The translations under genes were made by a program, and so were the position numbers. Source: Schmidtea polychroa (Eukaryota). Taken from it: DNA of 64,000 nucleotides. Shown here in pieces: positions 3,082 through 57,316 of this stretch; position 1 is the stretch's first letter; each line of letters opens with the position of its first letter. Location: the NCBI GenBank assembly GCA_044892525.1, contig CM097885.1, forward strand, positions 34,412,001 to 34,476,000. The letters are read 5' to 3'. The notes beneath the pieces are model-generated. The model ran no database searches, was not told the DNA's origin, and saw only the letters and a program-made list of their open reading frames with translations.

Positions 3082-4530
3082 AATTTAAATGAAATTTAGG
3101 TTGGTAATTTAAATAGAAAGTAAGTGAAGAAAAAAGACAAATAAAAGCGTGATCATGCACAGAATTGATAGTAAGGGAAAGTACGATGGAAGCAGTATTA
3201 GGAAATGGCAAAAGCAGTTACGAAAGTCAAAAATCCGGAAATCCGAGAAAAATCAATAAATTGTAAAATCATCGAAATCGAATTGGGAAAACGGGACAGG
3301 TATAGATTAGCTAATGGTCAACAAGATGATGATTAGGGATTTATCAGAAAATGGTTAGGAAGGGTCGAAAAGCATTCAAATGTGTAAAAACAGAAAACAT
3401 TAATTAATTAATTAATTAATTGGCTAATAGAAAACCCGAGCTAGTGGTAAACCCGAGTCAATGGAGAACCCGAGATATGAAGGAAACCCGAGCTGGATAA
3501 ACAAGAAGAAAAGTAAACAGAATGAAGATTTGGGCCCATTAGCTTGACACAATGATTAATTGGAAAAGAGCAAGGAGAAGATAGTGCGTGTAGAAAGGCC
3601 ATTAATTATCTTTGTTCAATGGACCATTATGGGTGACAGCCGAAGCATATGGGTGGAAGCAAATGTCAAGTGAGAGATTGGCTCGGCAAAGTAGTGTGGT
3701 TATAAACCCAACCAAAACAGCCCTCCCAACAAAACATGCCTCCAAATCACTTAAGCTATTAGAAAAACAACCTAAAACTTATACTTTTATAGTATTTTAA
3801 CCCTATATTTTGAAAACAACCACCCTTAATGACTCTAACTGTTTTAATCTTTAAAGCCTCAAACTCAAAAGCTTCAAACTAAAAACATAAAGAGAATAGA
3901 AAAGAAAATGGTATTATGAAAAAGTAAGAAGGCTACTTGAGGATGCCAACTAGCAAGTTGCTAATTGGCTAATTAAAAAAAATAAATGAAATCTTAATCT
4001 TGATGTCTTGAAGAATAAAAAATTTTATGAAAATAGTAAAACTGCTCTGAGAGGACAGTGGTATTTTTTTTTTTTTTTTTTCATTGTCCTCTCAACAGTT
4101 TTTTTGATCCGGATCATTTTTTTTTTATTCAACCTCTTTCGTTTATCAAATCTCTTCCAATATACAAGCTGGCCAGGCTCATAATCAGAATCAATTCGAT
4201 AATAGCAGCACACCTTATTATTCGCTTCTCGCTCGAATACGATTTCATCGGCGTTTTAAGTGTGCTGCTCGAAAGTACAAATGAATTCGAAAGTGAATTC
4301 GAAAGAGGTCCGAAAACAACTGAGAAATAAATGTGCACATTAAAGAATCGATCCGGGGGTGTTCGAAAGACAGGTGGCGATAATTACCGGTTCGCCACCA
4401 TCACCCGTTTCAATAATTTTTTTTTCATATTTATGTTTAAAAAATAAAATAAAATAAAATAAATAAAATAAAATATAAATCTAAGATACCCACACTATTA
4501 TTTTCAAATTTTTAATATTATTTTATGTTG

Positions 4531-4614
4531 AAAAAAAACTAACCACAGTTAGGATTTGAACCGCTATCCATTTGAACCACGGTGCCGGTCTATTCCCACT
4601 GCGCCATCAAGGTT
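4531..4614 (-). ncRNA. tRNA-like Pol III unit, outer copy, left TIR
   Basis: Minus strand: A box TGGCGCAGTGG, B box GGTTCAAATCC, AACC..GGTT closing stem, T8 terminator. Confidence 0.6.
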
Positions 4615-4764
4615 TGAATTTTTGTCATTTTTTTAATTTTTAATTTATAAAAAAAATAAAATAAAATAAAATAAATAAAATAAAATATACAAGTACTTTA
4701 TAAATATAAGATACCCACACTATTTTCAATATTATTTTCAAATTTTTAATATTATTTTATGTTG

Positions 4765-4847
4765 AAAAAAAACTAACCTCAGATGTGATTTGAACCACTA
4801 GCATTTTGAACCACTGTGTCAGTCTAGCCCACTGCGCTATTAAGGTT
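4765..4847 (-). ncRNA. tRNA-like Pol III unit, inner copy, left TIR
   Basis: Minus strand: A box TAGCGCAGTGG, B-box variant GGTTCAAATCA, AACCTTA/TGAGGTT stem, T8 terminator. Confidence 0.55.
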
Positions 4848-4954
4848 TGGATTTTTTGTCATTTTTTTAATTTTTAATTTATAAAAAATGAATAATATAA
4901 ATCTTAAAAAATAAAATGAAAACAGGGTATCCAATAAAAAATTTTTTTCTAAAA

Positions 4955-5020
4955 ATGAATTGTAATATTTGCAATAAAGTTTTTAAAAATAAAACTGGAT
5001 TAATTTCTCACTTAAAATGA
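4955..5020 (+). CDS. 21-aa upstream ORF, probably the frameshifted true N-terminus (zinc finger) of the polymerase
   Basis: MNCNICNKVFKNKTGLISHLK* overlaps the pol ATG (ATGA); one extra A gives C-x2-C-x12-H-x5-H. Confidence 0.6.
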   Translation: MNCNICNKVFKNKTGLISHLK

Positions 5021-8000
5021 AAGCTCATTTATTAAAAGAAAATAATCTTAATGATACAAATTCAAAACTTTGTCTTAAATGTAAAGGAAGATTTCTACAT
5101 TCTGGATATAATAAACATTTTGAAAATTGTATCGGGAAAAATAGAGAAATATTTACATGTCCTCATTGTAACTTTTCAACAAAACTAAATTTCTATTATT
5201 TAGAACATATAAAAGAATGTAAAAATAAAAAACAAAATTCTGACGATGAGGAATGTCATTCAGAAGGAGAACCTGATCATGTTGAAAGAGAAAATTATAA
5301 CTGGGATAATTTTAATCATATAGATGAATTTCAATTAAAAATTAATGGGCCTGCAACTCCTGGAGAATATATAAATAAAAATAAAAAAAATATTAAAAAT
5401 TCTTTCACTGAAGCTTTAAAAAATTATAAACCGACAAGGTATAATGTTATAAAATATAAAATTATAATCAAAGCAAAATACTGGCGAGGAGCAGAAGAAA
5501 AGACAACACCCTTAGATGTTGAAATTGGAATACCTTTTAAATATTTATTTTCAATTAAAGGATTTGATAAAACCATCAAAGAAATAATTAAAGCAGCAGA
5601 AGCAAAACAAGAGGAAGTAGAAAATGAATTAGGAGATTCAAACTTAGTATTCAACTCTTTCCAAACTTTAGTGATTGATTATTGGAGAGGATTACCACCC
5701 AATCCTAAATCTTATATTCCTACACCCTTTAAATCTAAAAATGTTATAAATGTACAGAATAATGATAACAAATGTTTCATCTGGTCAATACTTGCACATT
5801 TACATCCTCAAGCAACAAATCCCCAAAGAGTTTCAAAATACAAACAATATGAAAATGAATTAATATTTCCCAAAGGATTCAAACACCCAATGAAACTAGA
5901 AGACATTCCAGAATTTGAAAAATTAAATAATCTTAAACTTAATATTTATGAACATGTTATAGGGAAAGAAATTATTCCAATTTATATTTCAGATAGTGGA
6001 ACCAAGGATAACGGAGCACAGGACAACGAGATATATCTTTTAATCTTGGAACAACAAAATAATCAACATTATGTTTTAATAAAAAACTTTCAAGCTTTTA
6101 CATCTCCAGAGAATCCAACTAGTGGAGGAGGAACATGTAAAAGATGTCTTCATTATTCAACAACTAAAAACTCTATGATTAAACATACAAGATTTTGTGA
6201 AAAAGATGATCCAGCTTTAATTAAAATGCCTAATAATCCCAAGATGTATTTTAAAAACTTTTCAAATTTACTACAAACAGTTGGAGTTCTTTATGGTGAC
6301 TTTGAATCTATAAACCATAAACAAGATTTGGTTTATCAATATTTAAAAATAATAGAAAAAAATAAACTCATGGATTTATGGAACTCCTCAGGAGAGAAGA
6401 TGAAACCAGAGAGGATGAAAGCCTTTCTAAGAAAAAGAAATAAACCTAATAGTGTTAAAAAAACTAAACAATTACCATCTGCTTATAAATTATTATTTAA
6501 AAGTAATTATCCTGAACTCATAGAATCTAGAGAATATTCAATTCTAGGAGGTACCCATGAAGAAGTCTTGAATCATTTTACTAAAAATATAAATGATCTA
6601 GAACATGAAATATTTAAAATATTAAAAACAAAGTATCCTCAAAATATTTCTAATCAACAACAACAAGAATATGAAAATACTTCCAACTGTTGGATGTGTA
6701 AACAGAATATTCTTCCTGATGAAAAAGTTATAGATCATGATCATTTAAAAAAGGAAAATAATTATCGAGGAGCAGCTCATAAAAATTGCAATCTTAATTG
6801 CCATACTCCTAAATTTATACCTGTTATATTTCATAATCTTTTTGGATATGACATACATCTATTTATTAAACATTTAGCAGCAAATGCTAAAAACTCTTTC
6901 AAAGTTATCGGCTTAACAAAGGAAAAATATAAATCAGTTGAATATGGGAAATTAAAATTTATAGACTCGTTAAACTTTCTTCAAATGTCTCTAGATGCAG
7001 TAGCAAAAACAATGAAACCAGAAGATTTTAAAATCACTCGAGAATTCTTGGAAAAAAATAATATTCCTCTAGAAGAATATCCTACATGTTTAGCAAAAGG
7101 AATATATCCTTATGACTATGTTGACTCGTTTGAAAGACATAATGAAACAAGTCTTCCTAACAAAGAAGATTTCTTTTCAAACTTACTACAATCAGGGATT
7201 ACAGATCAAGAATATTCTCGAGCATTAAAAATGTGGGAATTATTCAAGTGTAAAACTTTAGGAGAATATACCAACATGTATTTATCCTTAGATGTTTATA
7301 TTCTAGCAGATTGCTTTGAAGAATTTACAAACTCTTTTGTTCTTAAACCTTATAATTATATAACTGCACCCTCTTTAGCTTGGGATACTATGTTATATAC
7401 CATTTGGACTTCAAATATAGAAGATGCTGATAAAATTATAGATCTTTTAACTAACCTCGATATGTTTAACCAAATTAAAACAAACATTAGAGGAGGAGTC
7501 TCTTCAGTAATGGGGAATAGAGAAATAAAAGCTAGAAATGCAATAATTACTAGCCGAAGACTATCTAAACACCCTGATGATCCATATATGAAAATTAACA
7601 ATGAGGAATTAAAAGAATTATTAGAAACAATGAAAAATCCTATATTTATACTTTATATAGATGCAACAGCTTTATATTCAGGAATTATGACTCAATATTT
7701 ACCAATGAGTGATTTCACTGAAATAGAGAACCTAACAGATGACCTTATGAAAGAAATACTTTCAACATCGAAAGATTCTCCAATAGGTTACTTTATAGAA
7801 TGTGACCTCGACTATCCAGATGATATAAAATCAGGAACAAGATATTTTCCTTTAGCTCCCATAAGAAGAAAGATTGATATCAACGAACTTTCTGAATGGC
7901 AAATCTCACAAGATAAACCTCCAACAATGAAACTTCTTTGTGATCAAACAGATCGAAGGTTTTATCTTTGTCACTATAGACTCCTCCAATTTTATCTCTC

Positions 8001-9234
8001 ACGAGGAATGATATTAAAAAAAGTTCATAGTGTCATAAGATTTAAACAAGCTCCATTCATGAAAGCTTTTATCGAGGAGAACATTAGGTGTCGAAACATT
8101 GCAAAAAGAGAAGGTAACCTTTTTAAAGATAATAATTATAAAATTTTAAACAATTCAGTATTTGGGAAAACAATGGAGAATGTTGATAAATATACTCATA
8201 TTGAACTCCTAACAAATACTACCAAAGATATTAAGCGTTATAATCGCATGCTAGGAAAGCCTACATTTAAAAACGCACAAGTATTTTCTGAAAATCTTAC
8301 TGCAGTAAAATTAAAAAATTATGAGAAAACATATAACAAACCAATATTTATAGGGTTTACAATTTTAGAACTTTCAAAATTACAAATGTATGAAACATAT
8401 TATAACATCTTACAACCTATATACGGAGCAAATATATCAATGCATGCAATGGATACAGATTCAATGTTTTTAACAATAAGAACTCATGATTTACAAAAAG
8501 ATATGAAAGAAAATCCTATACTTTCAAATTTAATAAATTCATCTGGAGAACTATTTTCGTTTAAAGATGAAAAACCTTTTACTCCTATAGAAAATGGAAT
8601 ATTTATTCGTGCTAAACAATATTCATACGAAACATTTAGAAACCCTGAATTTATAACTAGATCATTTATATTTAAAACTCCAGAAACAGAAGAAACCATT
8701 ACACATAGATATCCTATATTTCCTAAAGAAGAAAAACCTGTAAAGGATAACAGATGTAAAGGAATACAGAGAGTGGTTGCAAAGAATCTTTCTCATCAAG
8801 ATTATATAGATACATTGAATCCAAATCATAAAGATAAAATTGATGAAATACATCAACTTAAAAGTGAAAACCATGATATTCACTTGATAGAATCTCAAAA
8901 AGTATCATTATCAAATTATGATGATAAGAGATTCATACTAAGTGATTTAAAGACAACTCTACCTATTGGAAATAATTTAATCCCTATAATAAAAAATCTA
9001 GAAAAGTTGAATAAGTTATATGATACAAAGATTACTGATCTTGATATTTATAATGTTGAAATTATTTATCCCGAGAGAGAAATCGAGAAACCTTTATATT
9101 CTAAAGTTTTTAATCCTATATGTTTAGAACTTAAATATTTTAATGCTGATCCTGAATATATAAAAGGTCTAAGTGATAAAGAATTTAAAGATCATAAATT
9201 AATGATTCATAGGTTGGCTTTCAACCATAACTGA
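5017..9234 (+). CDS. Protein-primed family B DNA polymerase (pPolB) with N-terminal Zn fingers, Cys/His protease-like region and endonuclease VII-like insertion
   Basis: ExoI GDFES, ExoII FHNLFGYD, ExoIII YLSLD, PolA YIDATALY, PolB KILNNSVFGK, PolC DTDS; CWMC..DHDH..YRGAAHKNCN; NKCFIWS..HY. Confidence 0.95.
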   Translation: MKAHLLKENNLNDTNSKLCLKCKGRFLHSGYNKHFENCIGKNREIFTCPHCNFSTKLNFYYLEHIKECKNKKQNSDDEECHSEGEPDHVERENYNWDNFNHIDEFQLKINGPATPGEYINKNKKNIKNSFTEALKNYKPTRYNVIKYKIIIKAKYWRGAEEKTTPLDVEIGIPFKYLFSIKGFDKTIKEIIKAAEAKQEEVENELGDSNLVFNSFQTLVIDYWRGLPPNPKSYIPTPFKSKNVINVQNNDNKCFIWSILAHLHPQATNPQRVSKYKQYENELIFPKGFKHPMKLEDIPEFEKLNNLKLNIYEHVIGKEIIPIYISDSGTKDNGAQDNEIYLLILEQQNNQHYVLIKNFQAFTSPENPTSGGGTCKRCLHYSTTKNSMIKHTRFCEKDDPALIKMPNNPKMYFKNFSNLLQTVGVLYGDFESINHKQDLVYQYLKIIEKNKLMDLWNSSGEKMKPERMKAFLRKRNKPNSVKKTKQLPSAYKLLFKSNYPELIESREYSILGGTHEEVLNHFTKNINDLEHEIFKILKTKYPQNISNQQQQEYENTSNCWMCKQNILPDEKVIDHDHLKKENNYRGAAHKNCNLNCHTPKFIPVIFHNLFGYDIHLFIKHLAANAKNSFKVIGLTKEKYKSVEYGKLKFIDSLNFLQMSLDAVAKTMKPEDFKITREFLEKNNIPLEEYPTCLAKGIYPYDYVDSFERHNETSLPNKEDFFSNLLQSGITDQEYSRALKMWELFKCKTLGEYTNMYLSLDVYILADCFEEFTNSFVLKPYNYITAPSLAWDTMLYTIWTSNIEDADKIIDLLTNLDMFNQIKTNIRGGVSSVMGNREIKARNAIITSRRLSKHPDDPYMKINNEELKELLETMKNPIFILYIDATALYSGIMTQYLPMSDFTEIENLTDDLMKEILSTSKDSPIGYFIECDLDYPDDIKSGTRYFPLAPIRRKIDINELSEWQISQDKPPTMKLLCDQTDRRFYLCHYRLLQFYLSRGMILKKVHSVIRFKQAPFMKAFIEENIRCRNIAKREGNLFKDNNYKILNNSVFGKTMENVDKYTHIELLTNTTKDIKRYNRMLGKPTFKNAQVFSENLTAVKLKNYEKTYNKPIFIGFTILELSKLQMYETYYNILQPIYGANISMHAMDTDSMFLTIRTHDLQKDMKENPILSNLINSSGELFSFKDEKPFTPIENGIFIRAKQYSYETFRNPEFITRSFIFKTPETEETITHRYPIFPKEEKPVKDNRCKGIQRVVAKNLSHQDYIDTLNPNHKDKIDEIHQLKSENHDIHLIESQKVSLSNYDDKRFILSDLKTTLPIGNNLIPIIKNLEKLNKLYDTKITDLDIYNVEIIYPEREIEKPLYSKVFNPICLELKYFNADPEYIKGLSDKEFKDHKLMIHRLAFNHN

Positions 9235-9320
9235 AACCAACGATATTTAATAATAAAATGTCGACAATTAATTTAAGCAACTATAGCAACCTGATCTACT
9301 TTTTTAAAAATACACCCATT

Positions 9321-9917
9321 TTATAAGTAAGAATTCTTTAACCATTTTTCTCGAGATGTTTTTTTATTACTTATAACATTAGCCACCATGCCCTCCCTTT
9401 TTAATCTTATAACCTCATTCTTTATATCTTGTATTATTTGATTTGATTTCATTATTTCTTCGTCTGTCAGGATTCCATCTTCCAAAGCTTTTAATTGAAA
9501 TAAAAATAATTTAGAGATTCCTAATTCTATTGATAAACAAACTTCTCTATATAAACTTTTCTTTTTAGAAGTATAAGATAATGAAACTATTTCAGTTAAG
9601 AAACCATCAGCCACAGAAATACTTCCAAGTATTACAGGTGCAAGAGTAACAACTGGTAAAGTTATGGGTAAAATAACTGTTAATATTACAGATGCAAATC
9701 CTAAAGAATAACCTATAACTTTTAAAACTGTATTCCCTTTATTCCATCTATTTTTAATTTTTTTATAATGCTTTAATAAATCTTGTAAATGTAAGGTTTC
9801 TGATTTAAATTCTTTTACTCTCATAATTTCAAGTTCTGTGGGAGCCGAGGCCTTGGAAGAATAATATCCTGATGATCTCAATTCTGGGTAAATTTTTTCT
9901 TCTCTTACTTCTTCCAT
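9321..9917 (-). CDS. Polinton membrane protein (coiled coil plus hydrophobic hairpin)
   Basis: Hydrophobic stretch VIGYSLGFASVILTVILPITLPVVTLAPVILGSISV between helical regions; lies in the tightly packed gene array. Confidence 0.65.
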   Translation of the reverse strand: MEEVREEKIYPELRSSGYYSSKASAPTELEIMRVKEFKSETLHLQDLLKHYKKIKNRWNKGNTVLKVIGYSLGFASVILTVILPITLPVVTLAPVILGSISVADGFLTEIVSLSYTSKKKSLYREVCLSIELGISKLFLFQLKALEDGILTDEEIMKSNQIIQDIKNEVIRLKREGMVANVISNKKTSREKWLKNSYL

Positions 9918-9925
9918 TTTAATAA

Positions 9926-10318
9926 TTAAAAAAATAAGACTTTATTCTTCTGAGCACCATCTGGCACCAATACTCGGATATCAAAAGAAACTCTTGTTGA
10001 GAGGATATCTTTATACAATTCTCTCAATGCTTTACGAACTTCATCAACATCAACCTTTTTTTCATAAAATATTAAATCTATATATTGTACAAGTGAACTA
10101 GAAAAATGAATATTCTTACTTTTAACTTTATGTAGTCCATGTGAATGAGTATTAACATACCAATCTCCGTGTGGTAAATCATAACTAGTCATTATAACAT
10201 CACCCTTTTCAAGCTTACTATTATAATCACATTTCACAAACCATTTCATTCTTTCATTATCATCATCAAACAAAAAGAAATAAGGATCAATAATTTTTAC
10301 AACCATAAAACACCCCAT
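9926..10318 (-). CDS. Polinton hypothetical protein, possibly SH3-like
   Basis: KLEKGDVI..GDWY..GL pattern; fills the gap between its neighbours. Confidence 0.5.
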   Translation of the reverse strand: MGCFMVVKIIDPYFFLFDDDNERMKWFVKCDYNSKLEKGDVIMTSYDLPHGDWYVNTHSHGLHKVKSKNIHFSSSLVQYIDLIFYEKKVDVDEVRKALRELYKDILSTRVSFDIRVLVPDGAQKNKVLFF

Positions 10319-10935
10319 TCTTTACTGTTTGTTGTTATTAAACTTGGTTCTATAAAATGTTTATATGTATGGGGTAATAATGTTTTATTCTGTTCTAATT
10401 CAGCAGCTCTTTTTCTAATACTATGTGTGGTGTTAATGTGTGTTCCATGAGACTCTAAATTTGAAATTCTTTTATTAAATGATGTAATCATCTCATTTAT
10501 TATTTTATATATTGTATTAAATTTAGTATTCATAATTTGTTTATCTTTAGAATTTAATATAGCAGTATTTAACTTTACAACTTGTTCAGTTAACAGACTT
10601 TGTAACTTGTCAAATTTATCATTAAATCGTTGTTCGATATTATTAAGCTTTGATTCCATTGAATCAATTTTTGTTGTTAATGAACTTTCAATTCTTGTTG
10701 TTGTTAAATTAGTATATTTTTTAACACCATCTACATATTTCTTATTAACTGCATCAGCTTCATCAGTTGGAAAAGATAATTCTTTTATCTTGTGTCCATT
10801 TAAAATTAAATCACCCTTCATTGAATCACCTCTTTCATTAATATATTTATTTTCTGTTAAAGTTAATATTTCTTCTGTATTAAACCCTGTTTTTATTGTT
10901 CCACCACCTCTATTACATGGAATATAAGAACTCAT
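10297..10935 (-). CDS. Fibre/spike-like coiled-coil protein
   Basis: GDSMKGDLILNGHKIKEL..PTDEADAVNKKYVD (tail-fibre/adhesin neck-like motif) followed by a heptad coiled coil. Confidence 0.65.
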   Translation of the reverse strand: MSSYIPCNRGGGTIKTGFNTEEILTLTENKYINERGDSMKGDLILNGHKIKELSFPTDEADAVNKKYVDGVKKYTNLTTTRIESSLTTKIDSMESKLNNIEQRFNDKFDKLQSLLTEQVVKLNTAILNSKDKQIMNTKFNTIYKIINEMITSFNKRISNLESHGTHINTTHSIRKRAAELEQNKTLLPHTYKHFIEPSLITTNSKEWGVLWL

Positions 10936-10959
10936 TTATTAATAATTTAAAATGAATCT

Positions 10960-11724
10960 TCAAACCTGTTTCAAATGTAAATACATTGAAATCTCTTCTC
11001 CATTAAAATCAATCAATTCTCCTTCTTGATTAAGAATTTTAAAATTAATATCCATTATATATTTTCTACATAAAGGTAAATAATTTGGAGGATTCATTCT
11101 TTCAACTATTTTATATCCCATAGGAACTGTGTTTGAGGGAAAGGAATATAAAACATTTGTTTGTTTACCATTATTATAAGAACCTGTTATACAATCGCAA
11201 TGAATATTTATTGTGTTTGTATTTATTATTTTTATAATATGTTCTGATATTATTATTTTATCTTCTTTTATTGTTATATCCATAGGTTTAAATCCTAAAA
11301 CTGTGTGAAAGAAACAATTATCTAAAAAACTAATTTTTATATTCTTCAAAGTCATTACACATTTTGAAGTTGGTATATCCATTTTAATTTTAATACCTTC
11401 ATTTGTTTTTTTAGAAAGTATATCATTTAAATCTTTTATCTCATATGCCCCAGGTTCTATTGTTATAATTTCTGGTTTATGCCCATCACGAGTTTGAATA
11501 GTAAATTTATTATTATCTTTAGTTATATTAAAAATAGTATTATAAGCACAAAACCATAATAGCCACAATTCATAATTTAAATTTTGATCTAATTTAATTG
11601 AATCTTGAAAGTTTATAGTAAACTCTGATTCTTTTGAATTTATAGATAAAGTTCTTGAATATTTATCTGACATTATGTTTACCATTTTTTTTAAATTATC
11701 TTCCGGAGGGTTGTGAAGCTCCAT
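10960..11724 (-). CDS. Minor capsid protein (penton, single jelly-roll)
   Basis: IEPGAY; INIHCDCITGSYNNG..VLYSF; YLPL..INFKILNQEGELIDFNGE..LHLK. Confidence 0.85.
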   Translation of the reverse strand: MELHNPPEDNLKKMVNIMSDKYSRTLSINSKESEFTINFQDSIKLDQNLNYELWLLWFCAYNTIFNITKDNNKFTIQTRDGHKPEIITIEPGAYEIKDLNDILSKKTNEGIKIKMDIPTSKCVMTLKNIKISFLDNCFFHTVLGFKPMDITIKEDKIIISEHIIKIINTNTINIHCDCITGSYNNGKQTNVLYSFPSNTVPMGYKIVERMNPPNYLPLCRKYIMDINFKILNQEGELIDFNGEEISMYLHLKQV

Positions 11725-11772
11725 TTCTTTAGTAGTAAATTCATATAGTAAAAATCCTTATAGTAAAAATCC

Positions 11773-12237
11773 TTATAGTAGAGATTCTAGATCATTATAA
11801 ATTTCTTGAATTATAGATTCAAAATCCTGCGTATGCCCCTTTCCCTCTCCCTTATTCAATCTATACAAAACATATAAACTTAAAATACCACATATTTTAG
11901 TATTCAAAGGTTGAACTTGTAAAGAGTTAAAAGTATAACCATTTGGGGAATCAATCGGAGAACCCCTCAAGAGATAATCTTCAACTTCTTTAGTAGGTTT
12001 AATCCCAAAAGAATCAAAGTAGATCGACTTCTTATATATACAAACCCAATGAGATCCTTTTTCATTTGAATTTTGATAATTGATTATTATATTCAGGGGA
12101 CTCTCCAGACTTGATAATTCATCATTCATTAATATTTTAATTTTTAAATTTAAATAATTTGCATAATCTTTTAAATCAAAATTTGTTTTTGCATTTATTC
12201 CAAATGTTTTTAAAAAATCTAATATTGAAGGAGTCAT
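11773..12237 (-). CDS. Adenain-like cysteine protease (virion maturation)
   Basis: GSHWV, YFDSFG and QVQ..ICG give the catalytic H/D/Q/C residues. Confidence 0.92.
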   Translation of the reverse strand: MTPSILDFLKTFGINAKTNFDLKDYANYLNLKIKILMNDELSSLESPLNIIINYQNSNEKGSHWVCIYKKSIYFDSFGIKPTKEVEDYLLRGSPIDSPNGYTFNSLQVQPLNTKICGILSLYVLYRLNKGEGKGHTQDFESIIQEIYNDLESLL

Positions 12238-12259
12238 TTTGTATTTTAAAACTTCGTAT

Positions 12260-13141
12260 TTATAACTTCGTATACTTATTAAATTTATCTTTTGAAATTA
12301 TTCCTTGTTTTAACAAATCTTTAGAAATCTTTAAAATATCAGAATCTAAATTATTATGTCCTGCTTTCCTTGCAGCTAATAGTTTTCTTAATTCAATAAA
12401 AAGATTGATGGGATTTGGTTTACCACCTTCACTAATTAATCCCTCTCCCTCTGTAACAACATAACCCTTTTCATTTTTATTTAAATAATTCTTTAAATCT
12501 TGAATATATTTTGCTTTAGAACTAGCTCTTATTAATTTTATTAAATTTAAATATTTTTTAATTTCTTCAACATCATCTGAAGAATATCCACAAAGTAATC
12601 TATAAAAATCATCTGTAAATTCAAAGTCTAAATATTCATTATTATAAACATTTTGTGAATGAATACGTGATTTATTTTCTGAATTTGAATATAAAGTAAA
12701 GTTTTGTTTATTAATTGTTATTATTTGATATCCTTCAGTATTAGTATTAAATGTGGGTCTAATTGAAGGAGGTAAATCATCTCTAATTTTAGGATCAACT
12801 TTAAGAGGTTTTGTTTTTAAAAACATTTCTTCTTCTTCCACATTAGAAATTCTTCTGCGTTTTCTTTGATTTCTTTCAGGATGGTTTTCACTGGATTCTT
12901 TTTCTTTATCCTGCCACTCTAGTTCTTTTATTTTTTGTTTTTTATCTTCTAACTCTTTAAATTTTGCTTGCTCATTGAAATCTTCCAACTCTTTTAGAGC
13001 TTTAATTGTTGGCCCCTGTTGTTGTGTTATTACCTCATTTAATATTATAGATTCAGCATGTTGAGTTGTATCTTTTTTATTATATTTATCTTGTTCTGAT
13101 TGTAATTTTTTTAAAAGTGCTAATCTTTCTTCATATACCAT
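12260..13141 (-). CDS. Conserved Polinton core-type protein
   Basis: GEGL motif, then C-terminal ELRKLLAARKAGHNN..DLLKQGII domain that I recognise from Mavericks; basic NLS-like RKRRR. Confidence 0.65.
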   Translation of the reverse strand: MVYEERLALLKKLQSEQDKYNKKDTTQHAESIILNEVITQQQGPTIKALKELEDFNEQAKFKELEDKKQKIKELEWQDKEKESSENHPERNQRKRRRISNVEEEEMFLKTKPLKVDPKIRDDLPPSIRPTFNTNTEGYQIITINKQNFTLYSNSENKSRIHSQNVYNNEYLDFEFTDDFYRLLCGYSSDDVEEIKKYLNLIKLIRASSKAKYIQDLKNYLNKNEKGYVVTEGEGLISEGGKPNPINLFIELRKLLAARKAGHNNLDSDILKISKDLLKQGIISKDKFNKYTKL

Positions 13142-13163
13142 TTTAATGGTATCAAAAATGGTA

Positions 13164-13742
13164 TCATAGTTCGAAGGGCTTCAAGTATAATCCTTTACCA
13201 TTTTTAGTTTTACAAAGGCATCCATTCTTTAAAGATTTACATATTTTTTTTAAATCTTTTTTATCTTTTGAAGATAAAGATTCAGATGTAGAAATTTGAT
13301 TTTTTAAAAAATCATTTAAACCTCTACCTTTATAAGGATCAAGATGGAGACCTTTGCCTTGAGACTTTTGCCGACTCCCCTCATATGGATTAAGATAGAG
13401 ACCCTTTCCAACGGACACTCCCCCTTTAGCTTGCCCTACCTTCTTCATTGAATCGATTTCAGTTTGTAGTTTTTCTTTTTCTAGGTCTGTCTTTTGAGAT
13501 TTTTTAGCTTTTTGAACTGTAGTTGCAATTCCTCCAGCTATTCCAGCAGCACCTGATAAACAAGCAATGATTGCAGGTATTAAAGCAGCTAATGGAAGAA
13601 TGCCTCCTTCTTTAGCTTCGTGGAGCTTCGCTCTAACTTGTTCTTTTACATGTTTTCCAATAAAATATTTTTTACCATCAATTACTACTGATTTATTTTT
13701 ATTTGAATTTATTAATTCTTGCAGAGATTCTTCAGTTGTCAT
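13164..13742 (-). CDS. Virion core/membrane-lytic protein with GxG-L repeats
   Basis: EGG then hydrophobic ILPLAALIPAIIACLSGAAGIAGGIA; repeated GKGLYLxP motifs. Confidence 0.7.
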   Translation of the reverse strand: MTTEESLQELINSNKNKSVVIDGKKYFIGKHVKEQVRAKLHEAKEGGILPLAALIPAIIACLSGAAGIAGGIATTVQKAKKSQKTDLEKEKLQTEIDSMKKVGQAKGGVSVGKGLYLNPYEGSRQKSQGKGLHLDPYKGRGLNDFLKNQISTSESLSSKDKKDLKKICKSLKNGCLCKTKNGKGLYLKPFEL

Positions 13743-13757
13743 TTTATAATAAATAAA

Positions 13758-14549
13758 ATGTCTACTTGGAAACCAATTTTAACTCGACACAAAAGTAAAT
13801 TTAATAATAAAGTATTTCCTGATAATTTTAGATTATTAATTGTTGGTTCTTCTGGATGTGGAAAGAATGTACTTGTTTTGAGAATGTTACTTGAAGATGA
13901 TTTTTTAGATTATAATAATTTAATCTTTTATTCTACAACCATAAATCAACCAGAATTACAACTTTTGAAATGTGGATTTGAAAATAAATTAACTAAAAAA
14001 GCAATAATTGATATTTTTAAAAATCAACATAGGTGTCCTGAAGAAGTTTTTCAACCTTGTGATATGGTTGATTGGTATAAGGAAAAGATTTTAGAATCAG
14101 ATATTAGTAATAAAAATGATTATATTTGTGAAGAAGGGCAGGAGGCAATTCAAGTTTTATTCTCTAATAAACCTGAAGATGTTTTACATTGTGATTTACT
14201 TCCTAAAGATAAAAAGAATCTAGTTATATTTGATGATGTTGTTAATATGAAAAATCAAGAGATTCAAAAGAGTTACTTTACACGAGGTCGACATAATAAT
14301 TGTAATGTTATTTATATATCTCAAACATATTATGCTTTAGATAAAAATTCAATAAGAAATAATTCCAATTGTTTTATATTTTTTAAATTAGATCGCCGTG
14401 ATAAGAATATGATTTATAATGATTTATTTTCAAATGTTGAACCTGATAAGAATATGTTTGATATGTTTGTTGATAATCATTGGAAAGAAAAATATAATTA
14501 TATTTATTTGGATAGAGAAGAAGCTGAAATATGGAAAAGTTTGTTTTAG
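13758..14549 (+). CDS. A32/FtsK-like DNA packaging ATPase
   Basis: Walker A GSSGCGKN, Walker B LVIFDD, TRGRH..ISQ..IRNN; first ATG at 13758. Confidence 0.93.
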   Translation: MSTWKPILTRHKSKFNNKVFPDNFRLLIVGSSGCGKNVLVLRMLLEDDFLDYNNLIFYSTTINQPELQLLKCGFENKLTKKAIIDIFKNQHRCPEEVFQPCDMVDWYKEKILESDISNKNDYICEEGQEAIQVLFSNKPEDVLHCDLLPKDKKNLVIFDDVVNMKNQEIQKSYFTRGRHNNCNVIYISQTYYALDKNSIRNNSNCFIFFKLDRRDKNMIYNDLFSNVEPDKNMFDMFVDNHWKEKYNYIYLDREEAEIWKSLF

Positions 14550-14560
14550 GGCTTGTCGAC

Positions 14561-15973
14561 TTAAAAATCTGTTTTCTGTAGTTCATTATTATAAAATCTA
14601 CCTAATATTTTTTCATTATTTAAATCAATGATGCTATATGTTATTGGAGTTGTATAATTTATTTTATTTATAATAAAAATTTCATTTGTCCATTTTGCTG
14701 TGAATCCTTTTTCAAATTTATTTTTATATTTAAATATTCTTACTCGGTCACCAATTTTAAACTTTGGTTTTTCAATAACATCATTTTCAATATTTACCAC
14801 TTTAATGGTTTCAGGCTTCATGGAAGCATTTAAAGGTGTTAATTTTATAGAACTATGTACATCATTATTATATTCATTTACAATCTTTTGTAACAATTCA
14901 TTGTTCCATTTTTGTTTTCCAATAGCAGTAAAATATTTCCACATTTTATTTTTTAATGTTCTATTTAATCTTTCAACTACGACTGCTTTTCCTTCGTTTT
15001 CTGTTGAATATAATTTAATATCATTTTCATTTAAAAACTTTGTAAAAACTTTGTTATAAAATTCTGTTCCTTTATCACACCATAAATATTTTGGGATTCT
15101 TTGATTTTCTTCAAATATATTTTCAAATGCTTCTGTAATAGAATATCCTGTTTTATTTTCTAAACACCTTGCAAAAGCAAATCTTGTATATAAATCTATT
15201 ACAGTTAAAATTATTTTATATTTTTCAGGGTCTGATGATTTGGGCATAAAGACTAAATCTGCAGACCATGTTTGATCTTTTTCATGTACTTGAACTTTTA
15301 AATATTTTTTATTTTTTCTAAATTCATGGTGTAATTCCTTTGCATATTTTATTTCTGATTCTGTTGGGGTTTGTAAACTAGTCTTGGCTGTACTCTCGAG
15401 GGATCTTTCAATCTCTGCTTGTTCGATAATCTTTTTATAAGCAACATCTTTTGCTTTCCTAGGAAGTCTTGCACCCATGGTGATCGGACTGTGTCCTAAG
15501 CCTATGAAAATCTTACCTTTCATTGCTAATTTAACTAGAGCTCTTTGAATCTTTTCTTGGGTTGATGGATTTTGGATTCTATTTAAATCATGTATTAAAT
15601 TCACATCTGCAACATGTCTATCTCTAAGATTTGTTGAATTGTATGCAATGTCATGTTTTAAAGTTGCTTGATCAATTCTATTTATTGGTTCTTCTCCTTG
15701 TTTGGGATTATTATTTTCATCTAATCTAATATCTAGACGTGTTCCTGGTCCAGTATAGTTGTGTTTAAATAAATGTCTTTCACCTGGATATTTTTCTGTA
15801 GTAAAAGGTTTTAATATTGAAGATGTTGTTTTTGAAGATTGCAAATCGCCTCCAGCTCGTGGAATTAGGTCACCTACTGTATGTTTTTTAGTTTTAAGAT
15901 GACTTGCTTTATGATGTCTTGTAACTTGACAATTACAAGTTTCACATCTCCAATAGGGTTTATTTAAAGACAT
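14561..15973 (-). CDS. Zn finger - phospholipase A2 - retroviral-type (rve) integrase fusion
   Basis: CETC..H..H; parvoviral-type PLA2 YTGPG..KHDIAY..AD; DDE triad SADL/WCDKGTEF/VERLNRTLK; SH3-like KFKIGDRVRI. Confidence 0.9.
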   Translation of the reverse strand: MSLNKPYWRCETCNCQVTRHHKASHLKTKKHTVGDLIPRAGGDLQSSKTTSSILKPFTTEKYPGERHLFKHNYTGPGTRLDIRLDENNNPKQGEEPINRIDQATLKHDIAYNSTNLRDRHVADVNLIHDLNRIQNPSTQEKIQRALVKLAMKGKIFIGLGHSPITMGARLPRKAKDVAYKKIIEQAEIERSLESTAKTSLQTPTESEIKYAKELHHEFRKNKKYLKVQVHEKDQTWSADLVFMPKSSDPEKYKIILTVIDLYTRFAFARCLENKTGYSITEAFENIFEENQRIPKYLWCDKGTEFYNKVFTKFLNENDIKLYSTENEGKAVVVERLNRTLKNKMWKYFTAIGKQKWNNELLQKIVNEYNNDVHSSIKLTPLNASMKPETIKVVNIENDVIEKPKFKIGDRVRIFKYKNKFEKGFTAKWTNEIFIINKINYTTPITYSIIDLNNEKILGRFYNNELQKTDF

Positions 15974-15990
15974 TTTAAAATGTTAAAATA

Positions 15991-17337
15991 TTAAGAATCT
16001 CCCCTAACATTTTCAATAATTGAAATCTTTCCACCATATAATTTCATTTCTATTTTCTTTTCTTCTAATATTAATGTATATACTTTAGCTTTAAAATTAG
16101 AATCCTTTGTTACATGAAGTGTAACATCAACATTATTTATGGCTAATCGATCATCTTGGTCTGATACATTTATACAAAATATAGAATATAAATTTTTGAA
16201 ATCTTCTAAACTTAATTGCGGTTCAACTTCGAAATCATAACATGTTTCAATATAATTTAGATATGGGAATATGTTTTCATTATTTTCAATATTAAATTCC
16301 ATTCTATTTATTGGATAATAAGAACTATTTAATTGAATTTGGATTGTTTTTAAATTATCATCTCCAATCTTTTGAATAAATAGATTGTTATTTTTTTGGA
16401 AAGATGAATCTGTTTCTTTGAATCCAATCAAGATATATCTTGGTCGGTATGCTAAATTTGCTACCTTTATAGAATATGTTGAACCCTCTGTCATACTAAA
16501 TTCACTACAGATTCTATTTAAATAATTTACATTTATAGACTTGTTGGAATTTAATCTTTCAAGGAGTTTGATTTCAGAATGTGGGTTTAATGTCCATTCA
16601 GGTATATGTAATTCAAGTGTTGATAATTTTAATTTAGCTTTTGTATCTACAGCTCCATAGAACAATCTTTTATCACCTTCTACTCTATTACAGATGAATT
16701 CTACAGCTCCATAGAACAATCTTTTATCACCTTCTACTCTATTACAGATGAATTCTATAAAAACATTATGAAGTATACGATTATAGTTTTGAAGGAATCC
16801 AAACAAGTGTTTTAATTCAAAATAGCCTTCAAATTTTTTAGATTTATAAAGTTCAGCTCTTTTATGGTAACCATGGTTTACATCTAAACCATCTTTATCT
16901 AAATCCCCTTTATTAGTGTCAGGAATCCAACCTGTTAATTCACCATATTCATTTTTATAATCACAACCAGTCAAAATAAAATTTAACATTGTAGAATATA
17001 CTCCTGGATGTAAAACAGTTTCAATTTCTGATGATCCTAGTTTTAATCTCATGTTGGAGAATAAATTTGGAAAGAAATTATTTTCTAGGGTTATATCTTT
17101 GTTTGCTTCAATTTCTAATTCTACTTTGTAATATAATTTGGCATTACAAATATCTATTGGGTTTGATGTTTGAAGAGATTGAAAAACTATATCACCCCTA
17201 CGATTTAAGTTTGCAATAGATCCTGAAGTTGGAGAGATTTTAAGTACATCATTTTTCTTGATTTCATGAGTAAATTCTTTATTATAATCAAGATTTAATT
17301 TATTTTTTTCTTGAATTTTAAGATTTATATTATTCAT
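15991..17337 (-). CDS. Major capsid protein (double jelly-roll) with an 18-aa internal duplication
   Basis: 448 aa from the ATG at 17337; LENNFFPNLFSNMRLKLGSSEIE, LFGFL, PRYILIGF, LYSIFCINVS motifs. Confidence 0.85.
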   Translation of the reverse strand: MNNINLKIQEKNKLNLDYNKEFTHEIKKNDVLKISPTSGSIANLNRRGDIVFQSLQTSNPIDICNAKLYYKVELEIEANKDITLENNFFPNLFSNMRLKLGSSEIETVLHPGVYSTMLNFILTGCDYKNEYGELTGWIPDTNKGDLDKDGLDVNHGYHKRAELYKSKKFEGYFELKHLFGFLQNYNRILHNVFIEFICNRVEGDKRLFYGAVEFICNRVEGDKRLFYGAVDTKAKLKLSTLELHIPEWTLNPHSEIKLLERLNSNKSINVNYLNRICSEFSMTEGSTYSIKVANLAYRPRYILIGFKETDSSFQKNNNLFIQKIGDDNLKTIQIQLNSSYYPINRMEFNIENNENIFPYLNYIETCYDFEVEPQLSLEDFKNLYSIFCINVSDQDDRLAINNVDVTLHVTKDSNFKAKVYTLILEEKKIEMKLYGGKISIIENVRGDS

Positions 17338-17422
17338 TTTTATATATAAAAGTTGATAAAAATAAAAGTTGAAAAAAAAAATAAAAATAAAAGGGAATTC
17401 AATAAAAAAATAATTTATAAAA

Positions 17423-17644
17423 ATGATTGACTTTATTGAAAGAATGAGAAATGAATTGAATGAAGTTAAACTTAAGAGAATGAAAAGAAGAGAAGAAGAA
17501 CCATTAGAATACATTAAAGAGTTGGTGGTAGAGAATGAAAAGTATCGACATTTTTACATGAATGCAGTAGAAGTAGCTGAGAAAAGATTAGATAAAATAA
17601 AACAATTACAGGAAAGAATAAAAGAACTTGAATCGATTATTTAA
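17423..17644 (+). CDS. Small coiled-coil protein whose stop codon is supplied by the right TIR
   Basis: 73-aa E/K-rich helical ORF with a TAAAAATG start context. Confidence 0.55.
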   Translation: MIDFIERMRNELNEVKLKRMKRREEEPLEYIKELVVENEKYRHFYMNAVEVAEKRLDKIKQLQERIKELESII

Positions 17645-17663
17645 AAAAATGACAAAAAATCCA

Positions 17664-17746
17664 AACCTTAATAGCGCAGTGGGCTAGACTGACACAGTGG
17701 TTCAAAATGCTAGTGGTTCAAATCACATCTGAGGTTAGTTTTTTTT
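17664..17746 (+). ncRNA. tRNA-like Pol III unit, inner copy, right TIR
   Basis: A box TAGCGCAGTGG 17672-17682; GGTTCAAATCA 17715-17725; T8 run 17739-17746. Confidence 0.55.
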
Positions 17747-17896
17747 CAACATAAAATAATATTAAAAATTTGAAAATAATATTGAAAATAGTGTGGGTAT
17801 CTTATATTTATAAAGTACTTGTATATTTTATTTTATTTATTTTATTTTATTTTATTTTTTTTATAAATTAAAAATTAAAAAAATGACAAAAATTCA

Positions 17897-17980
17897 AACC
17901 TTGATGGCGCAGTGGGAATAGACCGGCACCGTGGTTCAAATGGATAGCGGTTCAAATCCTAACTGTGGTTAGTTTTTTTT
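17897..17980 (+). ncRNA. tRNA-like Pol III unit, outer copy, right TIR
   Basis: A box TGGCGCAGTGG 17905-17915; B box GGTTCAAATCC 17949-17959; T8 run 17973-17980. Confidence 0.6.
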
Positions 17981-19599
17981 CAACATAAAATAATATTAAA
18001 AATTTGAAAATAATAGTGTGGGTATCTTAGATTTATATTTTATTTTATTTATTTTTATTTTATTTTATTTTATTTTATTTTATTTATTTTATTTTATTTT
18101 ATTTTTTAAACATAAATATGAAAAAAAAATTATTGAAACGGGTGATGGTGGCGAACCGGTAATTATCGCCACCTGTCTTTCGAACACCCCCGGATCGATT
18201 CTTTAATGTGCACATTTATTTCTCAGTTGTTTTCGGACCTCTTTCGAATTCACTTTCGAATTCATTTGTAATTTCGAGCAGCACACTTAAAACGCCGATG
18301 AAATCGTATTCGAGCGAGAAGCGAATAATAAGGTGTGCTGCTATTATCGAATTGATTCTGATTATGAGCCTGGCCAGCTTGTATATTGGAAGAGATTTGA
18401 TAAACGAAAGAGGTTGAATAAAAAAAAAATGATCCGGATCAAAAAAACTGTTGAGAGGACAGTGAAAAAAAAAAAAAAATACCACTGTCCTCTCAGAGCA
18501 GTTTTACTATTTTCATAAAATTCTTTATTCTTCAAGACATCAAGATTAAGATTTCATTTATTTTTTTTAATTAGCCAATTAGCAACTTGCTAGTTGGCAT
18601 CCTCAAGTAGCCTTCTTACTTTTTCATAATACCATTTTCTTTTCTATTCTCTTTATGTTTTTAGTTTGAAGCTTTTGAGTTTGAGGCTTTAAAGATTAAA
18701 ACAGTTAGAGTCATTAAGGGTGGTTGTTTTCAAAATATAGGGTTAAAATACTATAAAAGTATAAGTTTTAGGTTGTTTTTCTAATAGCTTAAGTGATTTG
18801 GAGGCATGTTTTGTTGGGAGGGCTGTTTTGGTTGGGTATATAACCACACTACTCGGCAATAACCATTTGTCATCCCGATTTCGATGAGTATATAAGGAAG
18901 GGGAAAATCAGAACAAATCGGCCTCAGCTAGGGTTAGAAGAAATCGAGCTTAGGAAAAGGTAAAAACGAATTTAGGAGATTAGGGAAAAAGAAGAGATAG
19001 AATAAAAATAAAAAGGGTGAAAAAGGATCAAATCAAAAAGAAAAAGGAAAACGTTGGTCAAGAGAACCTAAGGAAATAAAAGGTGAACATTATCTTTATC
19101 AAAGCATCAACATCGAGCGTAGAATCAGTCAAACTCGAACTGTTGGACTATTTATTATTGATTGTGTATTATTGAGAGAAAATATATTTTGATTTCAATA
19201 TACTTTGGGTCGTTTATTGTTTTGATTTAAAGGACACGAGGAGTCAGAGGTAACCGACTTAAATTAACTGAAAACCCAACAATTTAATAAAAGGCAACGT
19301 TTAGATGGGCCAGGAAATTCAAGTTTTTTAAATAATACTAAACAGGCATTTAATTTAAAAAAAATCTTTGAGTACTTTAATTATTTAAAAATTTTTTTGG
19401 GTCGTTTGGAGAAATATTTTAGGATTTTGGGTCGTGACCAAAAATCCTTAAGAACCGCTGATATAATCCATCAAATTCCTCATCAGATTCAATATTAAAG
19501 AGTTTAAACACCTTGTCCAAAAAATCTGGAATTTCAGATTCAATTTGATGTTCGATTTCTTCTTCAGATTCTTTTCAGATTCTTCTTCGCTATCAATGG

Positions 19600-20447: not shown

Positions 20448-21726
20448 TCATGTCGATATGCACTTCGCGTTTCGTGGTTTAAAGTAAACTGCATCACCAA
20501 CTTGGAACGACGTGTCCTGTGTCTTCTTTTCTGTATAACGAGCGCCAACTTCTTTCCAACAATATGAAAACACGGATGAAGACGGTAGCGTTCCGCACTT
20601 GTCATTGAGTGCTAGGTTATACCAATATACCATTTCCAATATTCCCTTGTTGGTTCTTGCTGCATTGCGTTTAATTGTACGATGGTTCCGTTCGATTATG
20701 CCGTTTCCCGATGGCCGATAAGCACATCGAAACACACATTTCACACCAAATTTGCGACACAGTACTTTCATTTGTATCGACCGAAATGATGTCGCATTAT
20801 CAATTACCAGCTCATCGGGGGAACCTCCTTCTCTAAAGATCTGTTCAAGATTCCGTGTAATGGTCTCCGCGTCTTCACCTATTATTTCTCTCCACAGAGC
20901 AAAACGACCCGGTCCACAATCAATCATAGTTAAATAAAGCTTACTTAGATAGTGTGTAACATCCATAGCCAGTCTCTTCCACGTCTCCTTAACGCTTAAC
21001 TTTCCATGCTCCCATTTTACAGGCGCCGGATCGATAGATTGACATTCTGAACATTCACTAATTATAGCCTTTACATCCGGGCAAAGTTCCTTTGCAAAAT
21101 ACAACGTCTTCTTGGCACCGAAATGGTGCTGTCTATGACTTTCTCGTAACACTTGGCTCACAACAGCAACGGTGCTTGCAGTTGGTTCGACACACGATTT
21201 AATCCATGTCAGCCATTTATTACTGACTCTTGTCAGTGCATCTGCTTTGTTTTTATCTGTCGGGACAAACTCAACCGCGATCGTTAAGTCATAGCTTTTT
21301 CGTAATTCACAAATGATCTGCAGACGTCTTCGGACTAGCATCTCAGCAATTCTGGCAGTATCCGTTAAAACTGTATCTATCCAACTCCTGACGTTATCGG
21401 AATCTGTTGCTACAACTAAGTTGCTTCTTTCACAGCTGATGGCTAAGTTAATTCCCTTTATCACAGCGTCTAACTCTGCAAGGTTTATATGAGCAAAATC
21501 GTTTTTCTTTCTCATCCATGATGCATCTTCGACGATTTTTCCTGATATTTCTAACGGAACTCCTAATGCCAGATTGCTCGCATCGCAGCAGACAATCGTA
21601 GATCCGTCCTTGTTTACGTGCCACTCACCAGTCACGGGATCGCTCTCTTTCACAGGATACATCATTTCGTTAACCATTTTTAACGCGATTTTTCCAATCG
21701 TATCATCCCACTTACTTCCAGCACTG
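20448..21726 (-). pseudogene. Gypsy RNase H plus integrase
   Basis: CDAS..HINLAELDA..TDS..NKADALTR; HHFG..CSEC; LAMDVTHY..IDNAT..GIIERNHRT. Confidence 0.9.
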
Positions 21727-43725: not shown

Positions 43726-45021
43726 TTAATCACTTACATTTTTATTAACTGCGACTTGTGAAGATGAGCTATGTTTGCTGGATATCTTTTTCTTAGGAAC
43801 TCGAAGAAGATCCGCGACCCAATTTTCATACGTTTGATCTTCTACATTACATTTAATTAGTCCGGTTTTTGCTTTGTAAAGGCTACCGTTGTCTTCATAA
43901 CAAAAATTAGACCCCAATTTTATTTCCCATATATTTTTATATTTGTCCTCGACTCGACAACGCTTGTAATCTTGAATTCGTTGAACTCTAGTTTCTTGAA
44001 CCCACCTAGGCTCTAATTTGTTAATTTTCAAATGATAATTTTTTCGCGCTAATTTTTGTGCGTTGTCTACATAGTCATAGGTAGTTTCTGGTAAAGCAAA
44101 ATATGTTACTTTATCTGTTACCGGACTAATTGTGTTTACATAATAATTTCTATCCTCAGCTTGAATTCCTCTTGAAATCATTTCTTTAATTCTAGTAAAG
44201 TTTAAATTTTCAATATCAAAATTAAAAAGCAGAATGTCGTCTTTATGTCTCACAATGAATCTAGCTTTATTTTTCATTTTATCTGTCGCTTCCATTTGAA
44301 GTTCTTCAAGCAATTTTTTTTGATCTTCTGTCTGATCAAGCCTCCTTGTCAGTTTCAGATCTATTATACCAGGATATAATTCGAAATCAACATTTTGATA
44401 TTTAATATATATAACAGATGTTCCAACATTTGTTTCTGGACGACTTATAGCTTGTTTTCGTGAAACTGGACCCGGCTCACGTTCACGGGCTTTCATAAAT
44501 GGCTTTTTGGTTTCCATCATTGACAATCGACTATTTTTTTTGTCTATTGCGTAAAACCTTTTCATTAAATTTAATTTGGTGTTTTTATGATAAAATTTAT
44601 TTGAATAATACATTTTGGATCTTGACTGAACACATTTATCGTTTTCATTTTCTTCAAAAGTCCGATCCTTCAAATAAACGGCTTGTAATCTTACATTGAT
44701 GGGATTAAAAGTCAACAAGTACAACCTCTTATCAAATATATTATTAATATATATTTGACTCAAATTTTCCTCTTGTTTTTTATTCTTTCCCTCTACCTCT
44801 TTTTCATCTTCCTCCTCTTCTATTGCCTCATCAGCTTCGTTACTTACATTTTGATTTATAGTTCCGACATGTTTAATAGAAATATTCGGTAATTTATGAT
44901 TATAATTGGTCCTTTTGTAGTTTGCAAACTGACCTTTTGAAACCTTAATTGAATAGTCTGAATAATCGTAGAAAACATGTGAAGTTACATGAAAATTATA
45001 ATTTTCAATTCTTGGAAACAT
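43726..45021 (-). CDS. Intronless 431-aa hypothetical protein
   Basis: Uninterrupted 1.3-kb ORF in very AT-rich DNA; acidic tract; no motif recognised. Confidence 0.6.
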   Translation of the reverse strand: MFPRIENYNFHVTSHVFYDYSDYSIKVSKGQFANYKRTNYNHKLPNISIKHVGTINQNVSNEADEAIEEEEDEKEVEGKNKKQEENLSQIYINNIFDKRLYLLTFNPINVRLQAVYLKDRTFEENENDKCVQSRSKMYYSNKFYHKNTKLNLMKRFYAIDKKNSRLSMMETKKPFMKAREREPGPVSRKQAISRPETNVGTSVIYIKYQNVDFELYPGIIDLKLTRRLDQTEDQKKLLEELQMEATDKMKNKARFIVRHKDDILLFNFDIENLNFTRIKEMISRGIQAEDRNYYVNTISPVTDKVTYFALPETTYDYVDNAQKLARKNYHLKINKLEPRWVQETRVQRIQDYKRCRVEDKYKNIWEIKLGSNFCYEDNGSLYKAKTGLIKCNVEDQTYENWVADLLRVPKKKISSKHSSSSQVAVNKNVSD

Positions 45022-48350: not shown

Positions 48351-48499
48351 ATTAAGTAATCAATGGTAAAAAATTTTAAATAAGTAAATCAAAGTAATAA
48401 TTTTTAAATAAGTAATGTAATAAGTAAATTAAAGTAAGATTTTTAAATTTATTAACAAAAAGTTGAAATAATAGAAGGTGTTTGAGAATTGAAATTTTT

Positions 48500-48720: not shown

Positions 48721-48734
48721 ATTTTAATAATAAT

Positions 48735-50050: not shown

Positions 50051-50092
<42 letters not shown>

Positions 50093-57271: not shown

Positions 57272-57316
<45 letters not shown>

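Follow-up and report, generated by a model that had tools for sequence, protein, structure and literature searches.

We found that a complete Polinton of Schmidtea polychroa carries, at the inner edges of both of its terminal repeats (TIRs), short units that appear from their sequence to be built-in, tRNA-derived type-2 Pol III promoter-terminator modules. Among the sampled loci these units, introduced here as type A, are a fixed component of the Polinton and spread only with it. Pol III-type units have been gained more than once by Polintons. A preliminary description of this DNA had proposed that the units encode small RNAs or form chromatin barriers; of these options the barrier would fit the pattern of conservation best. 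The specific reading that the units are docking sites for TFIIIC and Pol III, acting as chromatin barriers of the tDNA type, has in our view an even chance of being correct.

The window, i.e. the whole stretch of DNA analysed, comprises 64,000 nt of contig CM097885.1, and all coordinates refer to its first letter. It contains a complete Polinton with AGTAGT ends and a 6-bp TSD, CGGCAA (3684..3689, + strand, and again 18854-18859). The left TIR (3690..4870) and the right TIR (17641..18853) are both ~1.2 kb long and match each other at 99%; the inner edge of the right one is the start of the first 233-bp repeat holding unit R1 (see below). Besides the TSD, the element shows the gene set of Polintons/Mavericks between long TIRs: a protein-primed B DNA polymerase (pPolB; 5017..9234, +), an A32-like packaging ATPase (13758..14549, +), an rve integrase (14561..15973, -) and a double jelly-roll (DJR) major capsid gene (15991..17337, -; PF21738, E 2.9e-22) with the likely start Met at 17337. 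An N-terminal parvovirus-type PLA2-like domain is fused to the integrase ORF (14561-15973); the partner of PLA2 in described adintoviruses is instead a pX-like domain. The capsid ORF (15991-17337) has an in-frame 18-residue tandem duplication that is absent from the best-matching sister copies. A charged 73-aa ORF (17423..17644, +), found in many but not all sister copies, has its end precisely at the TIR edge, a short way upstream of R1. Elsewhere in the window we noted an RNase H/integrase ORF of an LTR-type element (20448-21677), a DDE_1 transposase ORF (41186-42277), a 431-aa ORF with no Pfam match (43726-45021) and a very large inverted repeat (46700-60230) with tandem sub-repeats, the inner arms of which (50052-52640 and 54724-57312) are 100% complementary.

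The type-A units are housed within the TIRs in a 233/234-bp tandem duplication at the TIR inner edge. In the right TIR, R1 (17664..17746, +) consists of a leader, an A box (17672-17682), a duplicated B-box segment (17699-17706), the B box (17715-17724) and a T8 terminator (17739-17746). R2 (17897..17980, +) has its A box at 17905-17915, the motif GGTTCAAA at 17933-17940, the B box at 17949-17959 and T8 at 17973-17980. The left-TIR counterparts of R1 (4765..4847, -) and R2 (4531..4614, -) are identical to their right partners, and all four units face outward, as the preliminary description had it. R1 and R2 are 80% identical to each other and have in common the A box TRGCGCAGTGG (at 17672 and 17905), two copies of GGTTCAAA (17699/17715 in R1, 17933/17949 in R2), the B box GGTTCAAATC[A/C], AACC..GGTT ends and the T8 terminator, at a length of 75-76 nt. 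All of these parts had been correctly recognised, and so had the composition of the units, which is GC-richer (40-45%) than the AT-rich surrounding kilobase (about 25%).

Type-2 Pol III genes have a consensus for their A and B boxes, and the units conform to the architecture of such genes: an intragenic A box and B box with tRNA-like spacing, then a T-run. The gap between A and B box is 31-33 nt in 90 of the 94 distinct type-A sequences. A generic pattern of A box, B box and T-run matched four times in the window as against a mean of 0.0 in 100 local shuffles, and the type-A unit pattern had 3,017 exact matches in the 781-Mb genome as against none for the reversed control; the units are thus not chance occurrences. 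ARAGORN detected no tRNA gene in the window units or in the sister loci examined, and Rfam gave no tRNA or VA match over 17300-18900.

Two samples of loci bear on the ownership of the units. All 30 pattern-picked loci (28 separate places, all within the initial 4 Mb of a single contig and amounting to about 1% of the matches) are Polinton ends with the same flanks, which is not the distribution of a dispersed SINE. A capsid search of the genome yielded 2,956 first-look candidates; among 86 capsid-picked loci, 75 retain the TIR core and every one of these has a type-A unit, the remaining 11 being without both (the eight of them that were checked are cut off at the capsid start). Two of the conditions that the preliminary description had named as refuting, absence from sister elements and identity to a dispersed host SINE, were not borne out in these samples, in favour of a unit owned by the Polinton. 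Right ends of Polinton copies hold one to three type-A copies. Within the unit, 16 bp of the B-box segment are repeated in tandem, the first GGTTCAAA being the duplicate, and one, two or three repeats of it are found among copies. The UCA in the first GGTTCAAA, which we took to resemble tRNA-Sec, suggested a tRNA-Sec-like reading; this was rejected, there being no anticodon stem and the motif being the tandem duplicate just mentioned. In a viral-contig collection, neither a relative of the capsid nor a match to the type-A pattern was found. The unit was likewise seen in none of 37 metagenome loci with related capsids (25-50% identity), a set of 92,926 bases in total that consists mostly of short loci, few of which reach an element end.

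Column conservation was analysed in 98 type-A units from the 75 capsid-picked loci, a variant being counted if present in at least three copies. Shared variants were seen in one of the 21 A/B-box columns (the R position allowed by the consensus), in one of the eight columns of the first GGTTCAAA and in none of the eight T-run columns, compared with 24 of the 47 remaining unit columns (p=2.5e-4). Of the earlier proposal that boxes, stem ends and terminator are conserved, the boxes and the T-run therefore stand, whereas the stem ends agree only between the two units of the window, the 5' leader and the 3' tail showing some of the highest variation in the family as a whole. Nor are the boxes the only part that varies little: the AT-rich downstream flank is conserved too (5 of 30 columns vary), and against four-fold sites of the capsid gene, our yardstick (17 of 74 columns vary), the boxes by themselves are more conserved only at a borderline level (p=0.067), with p=0.03 for boxes, first GGTTCAAA and T-run together. 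The non-box part of the unit is more variable than the four-fold sites (p=0.003), an excess that may come from old paralogues mixed through recombination. Internal T4 runs are absent from all 94 distinct type-A sequences and from all 12 of type D (see below), and unit length is kept. Since boxes, spacing and T-run hold while the interior and the fold turn over, selection apparently acts on the Pol III promoter and not on the RNA.

Related Polinton copies carry further types of unit. In an older subfamily, with segments of the capsid ~71-88% identical and the N-terminus of the polymerase 40-60%, a type D agrees with type A in leader, A box, B box, gap (33 nt) and T-run and has a different interior; the type-D unit folds worse than shuffled sequence (z +2.0). 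Type D lies alongside a diverged type A at the capsid-side ends and also in left TIRs. Many younger copies have, in the interval from the capsid start to the small ORF, two extra units named B and C. Types A to E are mutually 46-69% identical, and in types A, B, C and D the A-B gap (32-33 nt) and the length are constant; internal T-runs occur in 19 of 20 type-B sequences. As a motif following the A box, AGTGGGAATAG, is common to A, B and D, an older common source of these three is likely. Unit C scores as a tRNA (32.4 bits, cut-off 29), and its match among host tRNAs is to tRNA-Cys(GCA), in the 5' half. It is the only type that aligns clearly with a host tRNA; for the parent of type A, no clear alignment was obtained among the host tRNAs. 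Host tRNA genes (Lys, Arg, Cys) are arranged in long single-type tandem arrays, and the Cys pattern alone has 988 matches.

The setting of B and C outside Polintons, for which we had considered a MITE, proved to be the intergenic spacer of the host rDNA. B, C and a further unit E are present there, antisense to the rRNA, in 9 of the 12 spacer regions fetched; type A is absent from these 12. The spacer run of tRNA-like Pol III units is composed of E, B and one to three C (loci L170:2240-3300 and L266:7400-8460), and one rDNA array (L270/L271) is without E, B and C. In Polinton ends the spacer block is found at two sites, with four breakpoint classes and 77-94% identity, and the captured units face outward in the mapped copies. 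The first uptake site (17354..17397) contains a ~490-bp piece with B and C in many sister copies and is empty in the window; at the second, approximate site (18520..18554), other sister copies have spacer pieces with B and C or with C alone. Three of the four breakpoint classes are located at the second site and may go back to a smaller number of events. The spacer block is matched by 71 of 221 loci, and any other rDNA bin by at most three; these 221 loci are not independent events, and independent rDNA captures are few (two to four). A macrosatellite (L114, a 1,245-bp tandem array) also has a spacer piece, 81% identical, with a C-like unit in each repeat unit.

A second Polinton family, which bears a TBP-like gene, is unrelated to the element of the window (pPolB segments mostly 25-34% identical) and comprises at least three subfamilies; PF00352, the TBP domain, gives 2,998 first-look candidates. 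One of its subfamilies has a unit, F, made up of an A box, a 40-nt gap, the B box GGTTCAATTCC and a T-run. Full A and B boxes are present in five of six copies, the sixth being rearranged with a partial unit, and in the two copies with both ends seen F lies in both TIRs, facing outward. Four or five Ts terminate Pol III transcription, and each of the 15 distinct F sequences contains internal runs of T4-6; by this rule, F is predicted to be unable to give a full-length RNA. In the two other subfamilies the unit was found in none of four and none of two copies, respectively, and such a unit is therefore not required for the success of a Polinton. Unit F was also seen in host tandem arrays with repeat units of ~1,450 bp and ~210 bp (L362, L360). 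Relaxed ARAGORN calls near the TBP family turned out to be AT-rich artefacts without boxes. An element-encoded TBP as a factor for type A was likewise discarded, since the gene belongs to the other family and TBP has no match in the window.

If the units are barriers, TFIIIC (with TFIIIB) would bind them and Pol III would be loaded; we infer the latter from the conservation of the A box and the terminator in addition to the B box. Transcription of types A, C and D would yield ~75-nt oligo-U RNAs. The benefit to the element would be local, either a barrier or open chromatin where the terminal repeats meet the coding core, and would oppose silencing of the element by piRNAs and H3K9me3, of which Polintons are targets in a planarian (PMC8532177). 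Intact boxes at a domain edge are what a barrier calls for, and the units lie at the inner edge of the TIRs in two unrelated families. Replaced interiors, uptake of rDNA spacer and a separate unit F with internal T-runs argue for selection on the promoter rather than on the RNA.

Two studies on fission yeast provide the closest parallels: the cen1 tDNA barrier needs its A box and Pol III (PMC2040200), and B-box inverted repeats flanking the mating-type domain are heterochromatin boundaries (PMC7474672). In both cases (cen1 tDNA-Ala; IR-L/IR-R), Pol III boxes likewise stand in inverted repeats around a domain of ~15-20 kb. The S. pombe barriers are host loci with measured activity, whereas the units described here sit on a mobile virus-like carrier, are degenerate as tRNAs and are candidates for such an activity. 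By analogy, the effect on chromatin could go in either direction, as the B-box repeats of S. pombe also promote silencing inside (PMC7474672). Several observations speak against a barrier: besides the borderline conservation of the boxes, the conserved downstream flank and the lack of units in two TBP-bearing subfamilies and in the 37 metagenome loci, the small number of rDNA captures might be due to a hot spot of recombination, and the avoidance of T4 and constancy of length in A and D, together with the pairing of leader and tail (see below), would also fit a role as full-length RNA.

The latter observation leads to the first alternative, which we regard as rather unlikely, namely that the product matters and its fold does not. 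Abundant ~75-nt 5'-triphosphate oligo-U RNAs, made by thousands of copies, would then titrate La, PIWI/Argonaute or tRNA-processing factors, or give small RNAs resembling tRNA fragments. The constant A-B gap and length of types A, B, C and D, the invariant T-run and the lack of internal T4 in types A and D are in line with such a product. Pseudo-tRNAs are a major source of small RNAs in a planarian (PMC7962491), and the tRNA-like part of the TMERs of MHV68 is active alone (PMC8223928). A functional product is difficult to reconcile with an interior that is swapped wholesale among A, B, C, D and F, and with the internal T-runs of F and of nearly all B sequences.

Neutral carriage is, in our opinion, unlikely. 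The units would be passengers, i.e. fragments with a tRNA origin from repeats of the host (rDNA spacer, satellites) that were acquired by recombination and homogenised via TIR conversion. This would account for the high identity of B and C to rDNA-spacer sequence, for the C-like and F units in host tandem arrays, for the conserved flanks and for the lack of units in two subfamilies. It leaves unexplained that the boxes persist amid turnover of the intervening and surrounding sequence, that uptake is centred on the rDNA unit's Pol III block, and that an unrelated family has a unit in the same place and orientation.

The preliminary description had suggested, next to barriers, anti-RNAi decoys analogous to the VA RNAs, which act against PKR and Dicer. 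As true VA-RNA analogues the units would be structured dsRNA mimics whose terminal stem blocks Dicer or a dsRNA sensor. Polintons rank among the probable forerunners of adenoviruses, whose VA RNA I and II genes are likewise tandem, have intragenic A and B boxes and a U-run terminator and belong to a related class of linear dsDNA elements. [quoted passage not shown] The Polinton units measure 75 nt, half of this length, are located in TIRs, lack an apical stem and a central domain, and have no conserved fold. Single-unit folding in the window gave z-scores of -1.3 and -1.1, and the mean over 35 haplotypes was -0.13. For an alignment of 40 of the 93 distinct haplotypes, picked for frequency and divergence, the consensus fold reached -4.1 kcal/mol with compensatory changes at none of seven pairs. 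The closing stem (at most 7 bp) was paired in 73.9% of cells, a value equalled in 494 of 500 shuffles, and the covariation check that had been suggested for it returned no double change; a conserved terminal stem on which Dicer/Exportin-5 could act is lacking. Re-pairing of leaders and tails leaves stability nearly unchanged (-5.19 kcal/mol for natural combinations, -5.12 for re-paired ones; 41 pairs), and natural combinations are more stable than those with letter-shuffled tails (-5.2 vs -2.9 kcal/mol); a weak leader-tail complementarity thus persists. The VA reading is largely refuted by structure, and we consider it very improbable. What endures of the earlier interpretation is a type-2 Pol III-like unit that is owned by the Polinton, kept in its sisters and not a SINE; the VA-like decoy does not.

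It is next to negligible in probability that a SINE dispersed in the host genome or a functional tRNA gene merely inserted here, as could be suspected from the tRNA-type boxes and the tRNA-Cys match of the related unit C, given the constant flanks of the sampled Polinton ends, a cloverleaf that is paired in only 43.6% of cells when drawn on type A, the negative ARAGORN result (only type C among the units reaches the Rfam cut-off) and an anticodon region that is a duplicate of the B-box segment varying in number. The likeness to tRNA-derived SINEs lies in the tRNA-derived head with A and B boxes and in the thousands of copies; type A differs by spreading only within the Polinton, with no independent insertions in the sample.

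Other DNA viruses and virus-like elements offer partial likenesses. The TMERs of MHV68 are also clustered tRNA-like type-2 Pol III units, with redundant promoter boxes, and retain a structure like that of a tRNA, running on into miRNA hairpins (PMC8223928). In the Polinton units the cloverleaf is lost and the T8 follows directly after the unit, invariant in the 98 units. Intact tRNA genes are reported from Polinton-like viruses (PMC12220804) and MELD viruses (PMC8502044), and these papers place tRNA-related sequence in Polinton-class genomes, including virophages. Those viral tRNAs pass ARAGORN or Rfam and are read as codon support, whereas type A fails both and is a fixed component of the TIR. 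The earlier statement that no description of such units for Mavericks was known agrees with the open-access papers searched, in which we found no description of Pol III units in the TIRs of Polintons, Mavericks or adintoviruses.

A better candidate for a functional RNA than the units may be a strongly folded stretch of ~310 nt downstream of R2 (18135..18445, +; mirrored at about 4101-4411, -), for which the support is moderate. Its folding z-score is -4.13 on the + strand and -2.92 on the - strand. In an alignment of 32 sequences (30 of 32 cluster representatives, the window and locus L091), 98.5% of cells are paired and three pairs show double changes, one of them seen in seven sequences; many shared changes tolerate G.U on the + strand. 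As the fold was derived from the same alignment and the sequences are related, we rate this as moderate support. No Rfam match above the cut-off was obtained for the stretch. In the older subfamily (L091), its 5' two thirds are kept and the 3' part is different. Among the sequencing runs listed for the sequence, none is recorded as RNA; of four runs guessed to be RNA and compared as contigs with locus L016 (500-2900), three, from two studies, have a peak of contig depth at ~18216-18460, a weak lead that was judged without a DNA control and has genomic A-runs on its 3' side. Peak depth is 3,400-16,500 in X1 and X2 compared with at most 990 elsewhere, although contig depth cannot rank the parts. 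The X1/X2 contigs span type-A units with repeat-skipped flanks, so depth is neutral on transcription of the units. In the TIR we observed two further hairpins, a long stem around an A-run (18443-18506) and, nearer to the end, a short inverted repeat (18577-18600).

Combining these results, we tentatively propose, with the balance of probability against it, that animal Polintons repeatedly and independently recruit Pol III docking sites of their hosts into their TIRs, in the present case even from the rDNA spacer, as a shield in cis against small-RNA-guided heterochromatin; the shield would keep open the neighbouring ~300-nt structured TIR RNA, which would then be the real VA-like effector. How an element of 15 kb can build up thousands of near-identical copies in the face of piRNA silencing is, to our knowledge, poorly understood. 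If the proposal is true, Pol III modules in both TIRs, gained repeatedly and in two unrelated families, would constitute an anti-silencing device in cis of which the open-access papers searched give no description for Polintons. A further implication would be a path by which captured tRNA-like DNA turns into viral Pol III genes of the VA RNA or TMER kind, the promoter being retained at first and structure of the RNA arising afterwards. For the host, the ~3,000 copies together with the units of the rDNA spacer are predicted to form a very large pool of TFIIIC-type sites.
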